A DNA stretch of 64,000 nucleotides from Escherichia phage JM17: sequence record PP400779; one strand, 5' to 3'. This document shows, in pieces, positions 31,205 to 35,654 of the stretch. The translations under genes and the position numbers were made by a program. The notes under the pieces were generated by a model. It did no database searches, was not told the origin of the DNA, and worked only from the letters and a program-made list of their open reading frames with translations. The first letter of the stretch is position 1. Each line of letters opens with the position of its first letter.

Positions 31205-31786
31205 ATGACATGTCAATCTGAACTTCAAGAACGTGAATACCTAACAAATCTGATTGATAGCAAATTCACCCGCCAAGAACAAAACATTCTCTGGGCTTGC
31301 ACCGATTCTAAGGAAGACCCGGATTTTCACTATGAATTAGACCATCTTGTTCGTAAGCATATGACTTCTACAGTACCAGTAGAACTCTACCGCGGTGTAA
31401 CTCCAGAAGAAGTAGAACGTCTTTCCCTTCTTTCTGTTGGATGCCATTGGTCTCCTGGACGAGTAACATCGTTCACAACTGATTTCAGTACAGCTCGTCA
31501 ATTCTCTGGGAGATGGGAATATCAGACGTACACTATTCTTAGTCTCAGGAATGCTCCATTCATTTTTGATTACTACCAAAACATGATTAACATTGTACTC
31601 GCCGGAAAGAACCCTAAGCATGTTATGGAAGAAACGCGTGTTGACGTCCTAGATATGATTGAATCTGAACAAGAGTACATGGTCTCAAGTATCTCTAGAT
31701 TTGAGATTGTGGAAATTGAAGAGTTAGAGTATGACCCTTTGTCTCGAGTATACAAAATCATTCATTTGAAAATGTTGAATTTTTAG
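31205..31786 (+). CDS. modB: ADP-ribosyltransferase, ModB-like
   Basis: 193 aa; R-S-ExE signature (LYRGV, SFTT, ESEQEYMV); paralogous to next gene; position as T4 modB. Confidence 0.6.
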   Translation: MTCQSELQEREYLTNLIDSKFTRQEQNILWACTDSKEDPDFHYELDHLVRKHMTSTVPVELYRGVTPEEVERLSLLSVGCHWSPGRVTSFTTDFSTARQFSGRWEYQTYTILSLRNAPFIFDYYQNMINIVLAGKNPKHVMEETRVDVLDMIESEQEYMVSSISRFEIVEIEELEYDPLSRVYKIIHLKMLNF

Positions 31787-31843: not shown

Positions 31844-32452
31844 ATGTTTATGCCGTATAACGAGTGTGAAATTGAAGAAATGGTTCGTCGTGCTCAAAAC
31901 CCTGAATATCAAGATGAATTGCAGTATGAAATTGATAGTCAATTCAGCGACATTGAACAAAGTGTCCTGTGGCAGTGTATGGAAAACAAGCCAGACTGTA
32001 TTCAACAGGAGTTAAGTTCAATCGTTCGTAGAAATTGGACGTCTTCTGTTCCTGAGACAATGTATCGTGGAATCTCTAAGAAAACTATGGCCACACTTGA
32101 TGATAAAGGCATTGGTAGTATTATTAAATTTGACAGAGTAATGAGCTTCAGCCCAGTGTTCGGTGTAGCACGTAACTTTGCTTCGTATAATTTTTACGGA
32201 ACATTTAATATGTTCTGCATCAAAGATGCACCATTTGCTTTCAACTTCCGTGAACATATGCTTAACATGATTCTGGCTGCGCCATCTTGTGAGTTCAATG
32301 GAGCTTTCCCTGAAGCGACAAGACGGTCTAATGCCAGACTTATATCCGACGAATGTGAATTTATGCTCCCTATAGGGACTACACTGCGTGTAGATTCTAT
32401 TATTCAAGATGGACGGTATACAATCTGGAATCTGTCTATTCTCGGTTACTGA
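31844..32452 (+). CDS. modA: ADP-ribosyltransferase, ModA-like
   Basis: 202 aa; MYRGI, SFSP, DECEFML (R-S-ExE); tandem paralog of 31205-31786. Confidence 0.6.
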   Translation: MFMPYNECEIEEMVRRAQNPEYQDELQYEIDSQFSDIEQSVLWQCMENKPDCIQQELSSIVRRNWTSSVPETMYRGISKKTMATLDDKGIGSIIKFDRVMSFSPVFGVARNFASYNFYGTFNMFCIKDAPFAFNFREHMLNMILAAPSCEFNGAFPEATRRSNARLISDECEFMLPIGTTLRVDSIIQDGRYTIWNLSILGY

Positions 32453-32605
32453 CTGAATTGGAATAACCGGATGGAACTCAGAACCATTATAACACATAAA
32501 AAATTAAAGCATTTTACGAAAAAAGAGTGTACACTACCTGAGGGCATGTTATTATAAGCTTATCAGCTAAATGACCTTAACGTCCGTAAGACAGAGGAAA
32601 ATATT

Positions 32606-33343
32606 ATGTTATCAAATAACAAAATCAATCGTCGTCTTGACCACACCAGAGCTTCTGCGAAGAGACGCTCTAAGGATTTTAACTTAGACTTTAATTACCT
32701 TAAAAACATTCTTGATCAAAAGGTCTGCGCTTACTCAGGTGAATCTTTTAATAACTCTGTTGAAGGTGAGAAATTATCCTTAGAACGTTTTAATAATGAT
32801 ATAGGCTACATTAAAGGTAATGTTATCCCAGTTAAGAAAAAATATAACACGGCTCGTTCTGATTTAACATTAGAAGAACTTATTGAGAAACGTGATGCCA
32901 TTGCAAGACGTATCGCTAATCCTTCTGCCCGTAAAGTAGAGAAACTTAATCTCGACGAGAAGAAATGGGCCCAAATTAAAAAGGTTTATGGTACTATTTT
33001 AAAAATCCGAGCAAAACGTGAAAATCGTGTTAAGCATATGGCGAACATGATGAAAAATCAACCTTTATCTAACGAATCTAAACTTAGAATTGTTGCTTTG
33101 AAAGCACGCATTAATGGCTCACATCAAGCAGAAGGCCATGAACTTACTAAACTCAACGTTCTTCTTAAAGGCTCTGACTGGAAAACTAAAACTAAATTAA
33201 CTGACGCTGAATCGCTTTTCGATACATATGATAAAGTTATCCAAGGTCTGCAACGTTTTGAAAAGATTAGTTTCATTGGTAAATTAAAATTGAAACGTGG
33301 CTTACCACTTAGCGCATCATTATTCCAACTGATTAAAGGTTAA
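32606..33343 (+). CDS. HNH_3-like domain protein (T4 srd position); endonuclease activity uncertain
   Basis: 245 aa; CAYSGESF...LSLERFNNDIGYIKGNVIPV resembles HNH_3 core but D-H replaced by E-R; K/R-rich C-term; native-like codon usage. Confidence 0.4.
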   Translation: MLSNNKINRRLDHTRASAKRRSKDFNLDFNYLKNILDQKVCAYSGESFNNSVEGEKLSLERFNNDIGYIKGNVIPVKKKYNTARSDLTLEELIEKRDAIARRIANPSARKVEKLNLDEKKWAQIKKVYGTILKIRAKRENRVKHMANMMKNQPLSNESKLRIVALKARINGSHQAEGHELTKLNVLLKGSDWKTKTKLTDAESLFDTYDKVIQGLQRFEKISFIGKLKLKRGLPLSASLFQLIKG

Positions 33344-33345
33344 TT

Positions 33346-33657
33346 ATGGTTTATGTATATGCAATAGTTTATCGAGATATGGAAGGATTTACTGTCCCGG
33401 TTCCACTTGATGAGCATCGTCCTGCAGTATTTTTTAGAAAGGATATTGCAGATAAAGTTTTCGATACTTTGAAAACACAGTATAAAACAGATTTAAAAAT
33501 GGGAGTTCTAAGAATGGTCGAAACTCCGCGTAAGTTCTGGTTTAATAAGCTTGAAATGAAACACGTTAAACTAGATGCGGAGACGCAAAGATTGTATCAA
33601 CGAATCCTGGACACAGGCCGTATTGTTAGTATTCCAATTGCAGGGACTTTACGATGA
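33346..33657 (+). CDS. hypothetical protein (103 aa)
   Basis: ORF immediately upstream of dda, overlapping its start. Confidence 0.4.
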   Translation: MVYVYAIVYRDMEGFTVPVPLDEHRPAVFFRKDIADKVFDTLKTQYKTDLKMGVLRMVETPRKFWFNKLEMKHVKLDAETQRLYQRILDTGRIVSIPIAGTLR

Positions 33658-34967
33658 CATTTGATGATTTGACTGAAGGCCAGAAAAACGCCTTCAACGT
33701 TGTTATGAACGCTATTAAAGAAAAGAAACATCACGTAACTATTAATGGGCCTGCTGGTACAGGTAAAACAACCCTTACTAGATTCATCGTTGAAGCCCTT
33801 ATTTCTTCCGGAGAATCAGGTATTATTTTAGCAGCCCCTACACATGCTGCTAAAAAGGTTCTAAGCAAACTTGCTGGTCAAGAAGCATCGACTATTCATA
33901 GCATTCTTAAAATCAACCCAACTACATACGAAGAAAATGTATTGTTTGAACAGAAAAAGGTTCCCGACTTAGCCTTGTGTCGTGTACTGTTATTTGATGA
34001 AGCGTCAATGTGCGACCGTTCTCTGTTTAAAATAATGTTAGCTAGTATCCCTAAATGGTGCACAGTAATTGGAATCGGCGACCGATGCCAGATTCGTCCG
34101 GTAGACCCAGGCGAATCAACTGCGTATCTAAGTCCTTTCTTCACTCACAAAGACTTCGTGCAATGCAACCTTACAGAAGTTAAACGTAGCAATGCACCAA
34201 TTATTGATGTTGCGACTGACATTCGTAATGGCAAATGGATTTACGATAAAGTAGTTGACGGGCATGGTGTTCATGGATATACAGACCTTAAATCGTATAT
34301 GACGAACTATTTTAACGTCGTTAAAACTCCTGAAGACCTTTTTGAAAATCGAATGATGGCATTCACAAATAAGTCGGTGGACAAGTTAAATTCAATTATT
34401 CGCCGAAAACTTCTTGAAACAGAAAAACCATTTATTAAAGACGAAGTCATTGTTCTACAAGAGCCATTTACTAAGACATATAAGCTAGATGGTAAAAATA
34501 TGACCGAAATGCTTTTCAATAACGGGCAATTCGTTCGTATTCGAGATGCTGTAGAAACGTCTACATTCGTTAAAGCACGTGGTGTTTCAGGCGAATATAT
34601 GATACGATACTGGAATCTTACAGTAGAAACATATGGGGATGATGAAGAATACATCCGCGAAGATATAAAGGTTATTTCTTCTGAAGAAGAGCTTTATAAA
34701 TTCAATTTGTTTTTGGCTAAGACCGCAGAAACATACAAATTTTGGAATAAAGGTGGTAAAGCTCCGTGGAGCGAATTCTGGGATGCTAAACGTATGTTCA
34801 CTAAGGTGAAGGCACTACCGGTATCAACCTTCCATAAGGCCCAGGGTATGTCTGTTGACACGGCCTTTGTTTATACACCGTGTATCCATTATGCTGATTC
34901 AGAATTAGCTAAACAGTTATTGTATGTCGGCACGACTCGTGGTCGGTTTGACGTCCATTTTATTTGA
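33654..34967 (+). CDS. dda: Dda DNA helicase (SF1B)
   Basis: 437 aa; Walker A GPAGTGKTT, LLFDEASM Walker B; length as T4 Dda. Confidence 0.85.
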   Translation: MTFDDLTEGQKNAFNVVMNAIKEKKHHVTINGPAGTGKTTLTRFIVEALISSGESGIILAAPTHAAKKVLSKLAGQEASTIHSILKINPTTYEENVLFEQKKVPDLALCRVLLFDEASMCDRSLFKIMLASIPKWCTVIGIGDRCQIRPVDPGESTAYLSPFFTHKDFVQCNLTEVKRSNAPIIDVATDIRNGKWIYDKVVDGHGVHGYTDLKSYMTNYFNVVKTPEDLFENRMMAFTNKSVDKLNSIIRRKLLETEKPFIKDEVIVLQEPFTKTYKLDGKNMTEMLFNNGQFVRIRDAVETSTFVKARGVSGEYMIRYWNLTVETYGDDEEYIREDIKVISSEEELYKFNLFLAKTAETYKFWNKGGKAPWSEFWDAKRMFTKVKALPVSTFHKAQGMSVDTAFVYTPCIHYADSELAKQLLYVGTTRGRFDVHFI

Positions 34968-34976
34968 GAGAAAATT

Positions 34977-35654
34977 ATGAGCACTGATGTTATTATAGAT
35001 TTTGAAACATTCGGCAATACATCAAAAGCGGCTGTTATTGACCTTGCGGTTATTGCATATAATTCCGACCCTGAAGTTGTTGAATCATTTGAAGAACTTG
35101 TTCAACGAGGTAAGCGAATTAAATTTAATTTAGCTTCTCAGAAAGGGAAGCGAGTTTTCGCTAAATCCACTATGAAATGGTGGAAAGAACAATCGGCTGA
35201 AGCGCGTAAAAACCTGGCTCCGTCTGAAGACGATGTCACTACGCTTGAAGGCATTAAAATCTTTTTAGATTATTGTCGAGCTAATAAAGTTGACCAATGG
35301 AAATCACAGATGTGGTGCCGTGGTATGAGCTTTGACTTCCCGATCTTGGTCGATTTGATTCGTGACCTCTATCGTGATGAAGGTGTTCTTGAACCAGATA
35401 TTGATACTGATAAATTAGAACCTGTTAAATTCTGGGCTCAACGTGATATTCGTACGGCAATCGAAGCTTACTCGTTGACACGAGGATTAAGTATGTGTCC
35501 ATTACCGATGGGTACGCTAAAAGGATTCGTTGCCCATGATAGTATTCATGATTGTGCTAAAGATATTTTGATGTTAAAATATGCTCAGCGTTATGCGCTT
35601 GGCCTTGAAGATGTCCCTGAGAATCCTGACCCGTTAAGTGTAAAACAGCGATAA
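34977..35654 (+). CDS. dexA: exonuclease A DexA (DEDD family)
   Basis: 225 aa; N-terminal IIDFETFG exo I motif; position after dda. Confidence 0.8.
   Translation: MSTDVIIDFETFGNTSKAAVIDLAVIAYNSDPEVVESFEELVQRGKRIKFNLASQKGKRVFAKSTMKWWKEQSAEARKNLAPSEDDVTTLEGIKIFLDYCRANKVDQWKSQMWCRGMSFDFPILVDLIRDLYRDEGVLEPDIDTDKLEPVKFWAQRDIRTAIEAYSLTRGLSMCPLPMGTLKGFVAHDSIHDCAKDILMLKYAQRYALGLEDVPENPDPLSVKQR

Follow-up and report, generated by a model that had tools for sequence, protein, structure and literature searches.

The closest described relative of the protein analyzed here is Srd of bacteriophage T4, a protein that binds host RNase E in its catalytic N-terminal half and enhances host mRNA decay (Qi et al. 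2015, cited in passages of PMC13232886, PMC7430671, and PMC4980113). The literature compares this activity with that of the Escherichia coli adaptor RapZ, likewise a stimulator of RNase E cleavage that binds the enzyme's catalytic half (passages of PMC7430671 and PMC13232886). RapZ has no sequence or fold kinship with Srd and acts on one sRNA, whereas Srd acts on host mRNAs broadly. Among proteins of solved structure, the closest relative is the restriction enzyme PacI (PDB entries 3ldy and 3m7k), a 142-residue homodimer that cuts DNA and has two Cys4 zinc sites. An active enzyme of the HNH type, PacI works without a catalytic His: the metal is held by an Asp and an Asn, and a Tyr of the loop acts as the base (parts of PMC4081073 and PMC5714182). 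Tyr100 is the sole Tyr in this loop and hence the one meant when the literature assigns the general base. [quoted passage not shown] 2017; parts of PMC5714182). [quoted passage not shown]

The window analyzed in this work is a stretch of 64,000 nucleotides from Escherichia phage JM17 (sequence record PP400779). At positions 32606 to 33343 of its plus strand, on which all features described below are located, it contains an ATG-to-stop open reading frame (ORF) of 245 codons and a stop codon, with a Shine-Dalgarno sequence GAGG (32594 to 32597) 8 nt 5' of the ATG. Its product matches PHROG 1400, “Srd anti-sigma factor,” with E=1.7e-99, residues 3 to 245 aligning with positions 5 to 249 of the 251 in the profile. 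In tblastn searches, 1167 phage records contain an srd match, of full length in 1068; the identity is 98% to Mosigvirus phages and approximately 68% over the full length to T4-type srd; T4's own srd gives an 83% match over residues 2 to 96. The gene order, modB (31205 to 31786), modA (31844 to 32452), srd, dda.1 (33346 to 33657), dda (33654 to 34967), and dexA (34977 to 35654), is the annotated order in phage moskry, in agreement with the placement of this gene at the T4 srd position by the first-pass annotation. From the ORF list, the PHROG match, tblastn, and synteny, the frame is identified as the ortholog of srd in a T-even phage of the RB69-like type (Mosigvirus), encoding an early protein with two modules. 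T4 Srd belongs to the same length class and its gene likewise lies between modA and dda.1/dda, and all motif residues discussed below are identical in T4-type Srd; the difference is that the copy in the window comes from the Mosigvirus lineage.

In its composition and codon use, srd is ordinary for the JM17 genome. Its GC content is 34.7%, compared to 37.4 ± 2.6% for the ORFs of the window, and its self-referenced codon adaptation is 0.718, compared to 0.684 ± 0.056. The earlier description of its codon usage as phage-like rather than AT-rich is therefore valid only insofar as srd is typical of this genome. Compared with its closest relatives, srd is shorter by an in-frame deletion of 9 bp close to the Srd N terminus. 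The 153-bp gap upstream of the gene includes a weak promoter-like site, TGTACA-16-TATTAT with a TG (32528 to 32555), which was picked up by a consensus scan whose number of sites was not above the shuffled expectation. No match to the intron model is seen at srd, and there is no second copy of the Srd N-terminal domain within the 64-kb window.

Most database entries name this protein an anti-sigma factor or a decoy of host sigma-70/sigma-S. The srd name (“similarity with rpoD”) stems from a sequence similarity suggested in 1998, and the annotation has been carried over to PHROG 1400, PHROG 4592, and many GenBank records. Profile searches return none of the Sigma-70 region families of Pfam at E<=10 and nothing from NCBIfam. 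The region said to be sigma-like is explained by the HNH-type fold described below, and the experimentally supported partner of Srd is RNase E, not RNA polymerase (passages of PMC13232886 and PMC4980113). We consider it very improbable that Srd acts on sigma factors.

In a Foldseek search with the full-length model, coiled-coil look-alikes (PI3K p85 iSH2, AhlC, and ABC transporters) swamped the output, with PacI in fifth place. They were discarded as non-specific, and the N-terminal domain was refolded alone. The resulting AF2 model of residues 1 to 110 (pLDDT 92.3) has a beta-beta-alpha core. It includes helices at residues 4 to 20 and 29 to 36, a strand at 57 to 61, an omega loop at 62 to 72, a second strand at 73 to 77, and a helix at 78 to 84; the beta hairpin and the following helix, which carries N81, are present in the AF2 models with pLDDT above 90. 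With 64% mean identity among Srd homologs, the core (residues 10 to 87; 32633 to 32866) is the most conserved part of the protein. The top PDB matches of the N-terminal model in Foldseek are all HNH nucleases, including the 4h9d HNH nickase, the Cas9 HNH domain, McrA, and PacI (3ldy_A), the latter with the widest coverage (prob 0.99, TMq 0.61). The Foldseek E-values of these matches are weak (0.016 to 0.04), as is usual for a core of approximately 80 residues. No description of the fold of this domain was found in the papers citing Srd.

Single-sequence searches see nothing of this relationship. For whole Srd, hmmscan against Pfam-A at E<=10 yields only noise (DUF4168, E=0.44) and not a single HNH family, the NCBIfam search is empty, phmmer against the PDB finds only ribosomal protein L17 in the helical part (E=0.3), and BLASTP of the N-terminal part against the PacI fragment gives no match. 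The link to PacI thus comes from profiles. When a profile built from 35 family sequences is compared with all PDB sequences, PacI is the best match (hmmsearch E=2.1e-5, 27.5 bits), and the Geobacter HNH nickase 4h9d is matched weakly (E=0.036). An hhalign comparison with PacI gives 95.5% probability and E=1.4e-8 in the same register as the hmmsearch alignment, and the N-terminal helical extension of PacI aligns with that of Srd as well. In addition, PHROG families annotated as endonuclease, HNH endonuclease, and endonuclease VII match Srd residues 3 to 150 with E-values from 4e-18 to 6e-11. Residues ~10 to 87, with flanking helices to ~105, are accordingly described here as a predicted PacI-class His-Me finger domain that is distinct from HNH_3. 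The HNH-like character of the N-terminal region, which had been noticed from its sequence, is thus borne out by the family profile, the structure prediction, and the Foldseek matches.

The more specific assignment to HNH_3 (Pfam ID PF13392), with the Asp-His pair mutated, did not survive this analysis. The superficial likeness comes from a short strand that ends in an acidic residue and is followed by N ... N. However, besides the absence of any HNH family among the Pfam matches of Srd, a scan of 35 diverse members of the family at E<=1 gives no HNH_3 match (PF01844 is weakly touched by 3 of them), and PacI is the best solved relative both by sequence profile and by coverage. HNH_3 membership of this domain is hardly credible.

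The extent of the family became apparent only in exhaustive searches. A word-indexed homolog search with residues 1 to 110 gave just 5 close fragments, so an exhaustive phmmer search was needed; it recovered 1258 relatives (cluster representatives) at E<=1e-3. The relevant part of Srd reads C41-A-Y-S-G-E-S-F ... L57-S-L-E60-R61-F-N-N-D-I-G67-Y68-I-K-G-N72-V-I-P-V76 and contains the CAYSGESF motif that had been quoted before. In the hmmsearch alignment, residues E60R61, G67Y68, N72, N81, and R84 of Srd correspond to D92R93, G99Y100, N104, N113, and K116 of PacI, respectively. Glu60-Arg61 (codons GAA CGT, 32783 to 32788) is located at the end of strand 1, at the position of the canonical Asp-His, and the “DR” of the family pairs with the “DH” of 4h9d. 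This pair is invariant in 35 Srd homologs; among 233 domain copies from the family, 231 have Asp or Glu at the first position and 229 have Arg at the second. Gly67-Tyr68 (32804 to 32809), near-invariant across the family and placed in the omega loop by both homolog and PacI alignments, has its Tyr in 229 of the 233 copies, and Asn72 (32819 to 32821), the middle Asn of the HNH motif, is found in 232. Asn81 (32846 to 32848), the predicted metal ligand in the alpha helix, is present in 231 copies and is followed by Arg84, just as the second Asn of PacI is followed by a basic residue, Lys116. None of the motif residues varies among the 35 Srd homologs, whose identity falls as low as 28%. In the 97 proteins that have the Srd architecture, defined as a match to a hidden Markov model (HMM) of the C-terminal module, the E-R-Y-N-N set is retained without exception, and position 60 is always Glu and never Asp.

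The zinc site has fared differently. The C41-A-Y-S44 segment (32726 to 32737) aligns with the first CxxC zinc knuckle of PacI, C63-G-Y-C66, and is a remnant of it in which only C41 is kept; the other three PacI-aligned zinc cysteines are gone from Srd, which has S44, V76, and Y80 in these positions. Across the family, C41 is present in 229 of the 233 domain copies, position 44 is mostly Ser or Thr (Cys in only 5), and all four cysteines are kept in only 5 copies.

By these comparisons, the signature of the PacI class consists of an [Asp/Glu]-Arg pair, an omega-loop Gly-Tyr, a structural Asn, and a helix Asn for the metal; the canonical His does not occur in this class. The first-pass annotation was correct in that this His is absent from Srd, with Arg61 in its place. 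It had, however, interpreted Glu-Arg as substituted catalytic residues of an altered or dead site. Because the acidic-Arg pair is family-wide in the 1258 relatives and is also present in the active PacI, it is not a sign of decay; it represents the native signature of the family rather than evidence for inactivation.

Some members of this family are found in mobile elements. The homolog from Escherichia phage ULINTec4 (UCR91771.1) lies within an insert of ~599 bp in a DNA polymerase gene; in relatives with 98% identity this gene is intact and has no such insert. The match of the insert to the group I intron model (RF00028, E=3.4e-8) runs from one end to the other. The homolog from Acinetobacter phage LLY (WEV89177.1) splits an RNA polymerase gene. 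Homologs of the ULINTec4 type have a patchy distribution across unrelated phages and give reciprocal matches with Srd. Like Srd, the ULINTec4 and LLY proteins have the zinc-less form of the domain, with CPVFG or CALSG followed by DR, GY, N, and N..K. In contrast to Srd, they are 128 to 188 residues long, lack the C-terminal module, have Asp instead of Glu, and occur as sporadic insertions. Given their locations in a group I intron and a split polymerase gene, these zinc-less relatives behave as working homing endonucleases, and the family therefore includes mobile, presumably active nucleases. The Srd domain appears to descend from this family with its intron-encoded mobile endonucleases.

Such relatives, as well as the “HNH endonuclease” label of some Srd homologs in GenBank, might suggest that srd itself is a selfish free-standing homing endonuclease gene in the manner of seg and mob in T4, with a product that cleaves phage genomes lacking srd. 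The distribution of srd speaks against this. The sporadic presence and insertion features typical of homing endonuclease genes are seen in the ULINTec4 relative but not in srd, which is found in many genera, in the 1167 records listed above, with identity grading from 98% to ~30%; such broad presence with a gradual fall in identity is characteristic of core genes that are inherited vertically. Its neighbors are conserved, its composition and codon use are those of the genome, it carries no intron signature, and its product has a conserved C-terminal extension of 140 residues that is missing from the mobile relatives, as well as a host-takeover function documented in the literature. We therefore share the initial view that srd is not an active homing endonuclease gene and regard the selfish alternative as extremely unlikely. 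The proposal that Srd contains a “domesticated, catalytically altered HNH fold” can be accepted in its first part, as the locus is fixed and related domains belong to mobile endonucleases that reside in introns or interrupt genes, but not in the residue-substitution argument used to support it.

The C-terminal part of Srd begins with a long helical hairpin, residues 118 to 188 (helices 118 to 150 and 156 to 188; 32957 to 33169), in the full-length AF2 model (pLDDT 88.6). It is weakly conserved, with 27% mean identity among Srd homologs, and Foldseek finds nothing for it but coiled-coil look-alikes. The hairpin is followed by a conserved module, residues 196 to 245 (33191 to 33340), with 55% mean identity and the motif RFE(K/N)(I/L)S..(G/D)KLKLK(R/K)GLPL. 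An HMM of this region matches 97 of the 194 collected proteins. We infer that this module is a candidate RNase E partner-binding or oligomerisation element. Compared to PacI, Srd has one of the four aligned cysteines, Glu for Asp, a helical C-terminal extension of 140 residues, and a role in RNA decay; the acidic-Arg pair in place of Asp-His, the omega-loop Gly-Tyr, and the two Asn residues are common to both.

By orthology, the Srd protein encoded in the window would share the RNase E role of T4 Srd. In the original study, Srd-induced mRNA decay was reportedly gone in RNase E-defective cells and RNA with a 5'-triphosphate still required RppH, which speaks against cleavage of those RNAs by Srd itself. 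We consider it quite probable that Srd is an RNase E activator composed of a domesticated PacI-class domain and a helical C-terminal module. Under this scenario, a PacI-type domain would have been fixed in the phage core genome as Srd, fused to the C-terminal module; it may grip nucleic acid at a backbone phosphate via a metal bound by E60 and N81, with R61 and Y68 alongside, and the helical module may supply a docking or oligomerisation surface. With respect to chemistry, a site that is still competent for nicking or cleavage and a site that is now used for binding only each have a chance slightly below even. The replacement of Asp by Glu and the loss of the zinc cysteines could, either of them, alter or abolish catalysis.

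An alternative is that the domain is a dead pseudo-nuclease, in which the E-R-Y-N-N residues hold together a zinc-less fold or an RNase E-binding surface and neither metal nor nucleic acid is bound. The missing catalytic His, the loss of three of the four aligned zinc cysteines, the Glu found instead of Asp in 97 of 97 Srd-architecture proteins, and the fixed, non-mobile state of srd are all consistent with such an inert scaffold. Glu, however, is acceptable as a metal ligand in other His-Me finger nucleases (e.g., Glu79 of Vvn), the zinc-less CxxS/DR/GY/N/N relatives are found in a group I intron and a split polymerase gene, and all five residues are retained in each of the 97 Srd-architecture proteins despite their deep divergence. 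The sole activity known for Srd, stimulation of RNase E by binding to the N-terminal half of that enzyme, would also fit a scaffold (passages of PMC13232886, PMC7430671, and PMC4980113), but the absence of the His is normal in the PacI class, which is active (parts of PMC4081073 and PMC5714182), and the dead His-Me fingers described in parts of PMC5714182, those of SMAD MH1 and the ENPP nuclease-like domain, are without the catalytic residues. On balance, an inert scaffold is plausible but somewhat disfavored. At the other extreme, Srd could be a working PacI-type, tyrosine-dependent metal nuclease whose chemistry is part of T4 host shut-off and which, tethered to RNase E, may for example introduce nicks into host DNA or cleave RNA. 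We regard this possibility as rather unlikely.

If Srd did prove to be such a nuclease, “stimulation of RNase E” would be only half of its mechanism, and the PacI class, in 2017 a small and mostly giant-virus group, would become a very large phage family, with 1258 cluster representatives and without a Pfam model. Srd is among the very few proteins known to bind and upregulate the catalytic half of RNase E, and its best-conserved third appears to be a nuclease domain of the PacI class in which no catalytic position has been lost, which makes the mode of this upregulation addressable by point mutants. The labels “anti-sigma factor” and “decoy of sigma-70,” carried by more than 1000 phage genomes, would be corrected by this assignment. 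For the scanning of genomes, the absence of the catalytic His from an HNH-like motif does not by itself indicate a dead enzyme. The His-less PacI variant of the HNH fold, although it has no Pfam family, appears to be common in phages, where it occurs both in mobile intron endonucleases and as a domesticated module for host takeover.

The gene at 32606..33343 on the plus strand of the window, which represents a Mosigvirus (an RB69-like T-even phage), is srd. This 245-codon ORF has an ATG start, a TAA stop, and a GAGG sequence 8 nt 5' of the ATG. Its product matches end to end the “Srd anti-sigma factor” family of the PHROG collection of phage protein profiles (E = 1.7e-99), shows 96 to 98% identity to its counterparts in several phages, among them ZQ3 and moskry, where the annotation reads Srd or “putative anti-sigma factor,” and is ~68% identical to T4-type Srd; T4's own srd gives an 83% match over aa 2 to 96 (tblastn). 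The gene order modB, modA, srd, dda.1, dda, dexA is the same as in the annotation of phage moskry, by comparison with which the ADP-ribosyltransferase genes modB (31205-31786) and modA (31844-32452), adjacent paralogues immediately 5' of srd, were named. A non-coding gap of 153 bp, containing only a weak promoter-like site, separates modA from srd, and dda.1 follows at 33346-33657. A 2026 preprint (10.1101/2024.04.04.588121) places the T4 dda.1 and srd transcripts with the NAD-capped phage RNAs of highest abundance. As the first-pass annotation had proposed for its codon usage, the gene is ordinary in composition, with a GC content of 34.7% (versus 37.4 ± 2.6% for the window's ORFs) and a codon adaptation, referenced to the genes of the window, of 0.718 (versus 0.684 ± 0.056). 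Compared with the otherwise identical moskry sequence, the window copy lacks 9 bp (codons N-K-I) in the region 32617-32625 (codons 4 to 7); this deletion is in frame, falls at the start of helix 1, has short direct repeats on both sides (AATAA.AAAAT), and resembles the outcome of slippage.

The same annotation had noted a peptide that is indeed present in Srd (C41-AYSGESF ... L57-SLE60-R61-FNNDIG67-Y68-IKGN72-VIPV76 ... Y80-N81-TAR84) and had read it as an HNH_3-like core with substituted catalytic residues, possibly a domesticated fold. The HNH_3 assignment failed: Pfam searches of Srd and 35 diverse members of its family gave no HNH_3 match (0/35), only weak PF01844 matches in 3/35, and no model covering the family. 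The Pfam profile search of Srd likewise gave no support to the “anti-sigma” or “sigma-70 decoy” label, and single-sequence searches against Pfam, NCBIfam, and PDB sequences found no informative match for the N-terminus. Profiles do support an HNH-type domain. Residues 3 to 150 match the PHROG families endonuclease (4e-18), HNH endonuclease (2e-14), and endonuclease VII (6e-11). The AlphaFold2 model of full-length Srd, built from an alignment of 35 homologs (pLDDT 88.6), predicts helices 4-20 and 29-36, strands 57-61 and 73-77, and helices 78-84 and 89-104, followed by long helices 118-150 and 156-188 and a helical C-terminus. With aa 1 to 110 folded separately from a more diverse alignment (pLDDT 92.3), the top solved-structure matches in Foldseek are all HNH nucleases, including the Geobacter HNH nickase 4h9d, a type II restriction enzyme, Cas9 HNH domains, and McrA. 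The restriction endonuclease PacI (3ldy_A) gives the widest coverage (117 columns), with a probability of 0.99 and a TM of 0.61 on the query. Since the core is so small, the Foldseek E-values are weak (0.016 to 0.04) and carry weight only in combination with the sequence evidence.

That evidence leads to the same enzyme. A family profile of the 35 diverse members, searched against all PDB chain sequences, has PacI as its best match (E = 2.1e-5), followed by the canonical nickase 4h9d (E = 0.036), whose “DH” lies opposite the “DR” of the family. Comparison of the family with PacI by hhalign (95.5% probability, E = 1.4e-8) leaves the register unchanged: Srd C41/S44 align with PacI C63/C66, E60-R61 with D92-R93, G67-Y68 with G99-Y100, N72 with N104, V76/Y80 with C109/C112, N81 with N113, and R84 with K116. 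As Y100 is the sole Tyr of the PacI loop, Srd Y68 is its equivalent. PacI is the textbook exception, an HNH enzyme that lacks the catalytic His, holds a single metal on Asp and Asn, and has a Tyr positioned as general base (PMC4081073). [quoted passage not shown] Srd resembles the PacI-like group in profile similarity and catalytic signature but lacks its Cys4 zinc site. The suggestion that Glu-Arg is a catalytic substitution implying an altered enzyme was therefore not borne out: because active, His-less PacI has the matching signature, Glu-Arg is, by this alignment, native to an HNH class with a working, solved member and not a degenerated Asp-His.

The family is large. An exhaustive phmmer search with aa 1 to 125 against 1.84 billion cluster representatives retrieved 1258 proteins at E ≤ 1e-3, a set that has no NCBIfam or Pfam model and whose database names are split among “anti-sigma factor,” “decoy of host sigma70,” “endonuclease,” “HNH endonuclease,” “endonuclease VII,” and “hypothetical.” Among 233 domain copies from the best 150 of these 1258 proteins plus Srd homologs, the signature is nearly invariant: C41 (229/233), Glu or Asp at position 60 (231/233), R61 (229/233), G67 (227/233), Y68 (229/233), N72 (232/233), and N81 (231/233), with Arg or Lys at position 84 in most. 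Complete zinc knuckles (CxxC ... DR ... GY ... N ... CCxxCN..K) are kept in few members; most, including Srd, have only the first cysteine left. At least six large proteins (300 to 850 aa) carry 2 to 4 tandem copies of the domain, some second copies having Y68 changed to His or R61 lost; BFVD matches to Pithovirus and Clandestinovirus proteins suggest that they come from giant viruses. As a side result, the 2017 census appears to have greatly underestimated how large the PacI class is in phages.

Some relatives seem to be mobile. A tblastn search with the Srd N-terminal domain matched short ORFs in unrelated phages, among them a 128-aa “putative endonuclease” (CPVFG ... HLDRINPKLGYIKGNVAWISGRANRIK) between two DNA polymerase CDS of Escherichia phage ULINTec4. 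Its polymerase insert of ~599 bp occurs in 1 of 172 related records and is absent from the other 171; in K1E-like phages 98% identical to ULINTec4, the polymerase gene is unbroken. Over the insert, group I intron model RF00028 aligns from first to last position (MZ997839.1, 13149-13708; E = 3.4e-8; 39 bits, below the Rfam gathering score of 50), and the endonuclease ORF, of the zinc-less DR-GY-N-N type, lies inside it. In MZ997839.1 the polymerase is annotated as two distinct CDS, with no mention of an intron. In Acinetobacter phage vB_AbaA_LLY, a 188-aa homolog annotated as hypothetical (CALSG ... SIDRVNPELGYVKGNVQWVSWQVNRAK; OQ503491.1, 33420-33983) is flanked by two DNA-directed RNA polymerase CDS, so that a phage RNA polymerase gene would have been split by insertion. 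The ULINTec4-type protein, which matches Srd reciprocally, is scattered among Escherichia, Streptomyces, Ralstonia, Synechococcus, Caulobacter, and crAss-like phages, often within or beside polymerase, primase/helicase, or portal genes. Judging from genomic context, this distribution and these insertion sites are hallmarks of homing endonucleases. As the ULINTec4 and LLY copies are zinc-less too, Cys loss alone would not imply inactivity.

Srd itself fits the first-pass view of a domesticated HNH-type fold that is not a homing endonuclease. It is found in 1167 phage records (1068 full length; tblastn), with identity falling smoothly across genera from 98% to ~30%; the intron model search found no signature at srd, and the window contains no paralog of the domain. 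On this evidence, srd is not mobile. Unlike the mobile relatives, Srd is also extended at its C-terminus. The Srd architecture is defined by a match to an HMM of aa 196 to 245 (motif RFENLS..DKLKLKKGLPL), present in 97 of 194 collected proteins, and all 97 keep E60, R61, Y68, N72, and N81, always with Glu at position 60, where the remaining copies have Asp (81) or Glu (53). Mean identity within Srd is highest in the HNH-like core (64%), compared with 55% in the C-terminal motif and 27% in the helical hairpin; A18, R21, K23, C41, Y43, S44, E60, R61, N64, G67, Y68, G71, N72, N81, and R84 are invariant in 35 homologs (identity ≥28%).

According to published summaries of Qi et al. 2015 (PMC13232886, PMC7430671, PMC4980113), T4 Srd stimulates RNase E, with whose N-terminal catalytic half it associates, and in this way speeds the decay of host mRNA; papers up to 2026 describe Srd in such terms only. 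We infer that Srd may combine an endonuclease domain of the PacI class, now domesticated, with a helical module for docking or oligomerisation. Docking of the C-terminal module on RNase E is a guess, made because this module is conserved and the mobile relatives do not have it. The strict retention of metal ligands, Arg, and Tyr throughout the Srd clade argues that the predicted site is in use, at least for holding a metal and backbone phosphate; in dead His-Me fingers such as SMAD MH1 and the ENPP nuclease-like domain, these residues are lost (PMC5714182). A chemically competent site, possibly with DNA as its substrate, is a serious prospect, if somewhat short of an even chance. The Srd effect is reportedly gone in RNase E-defective cells, and RppH is said to be still required for a triphosphorylated RNA, which counts against mRNA cleavage by Srd itself. 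Weighing this dependence against the residue retention, we give a binding-only site a little under half of the probability as well, other readings taking the small remainder.

A few Srd homologs are already called “HNH endonuclease” by automated annotation, and the PHROG cross-matches imply the link; our literature search found no paper tying Srd to HNH or PacI. The srd gene was already known. What is added is the assignment of a domain within its known product; this is no novel type of system, but it provides a concrete, cheap experimental handle on RNase E activation by a phage protein.
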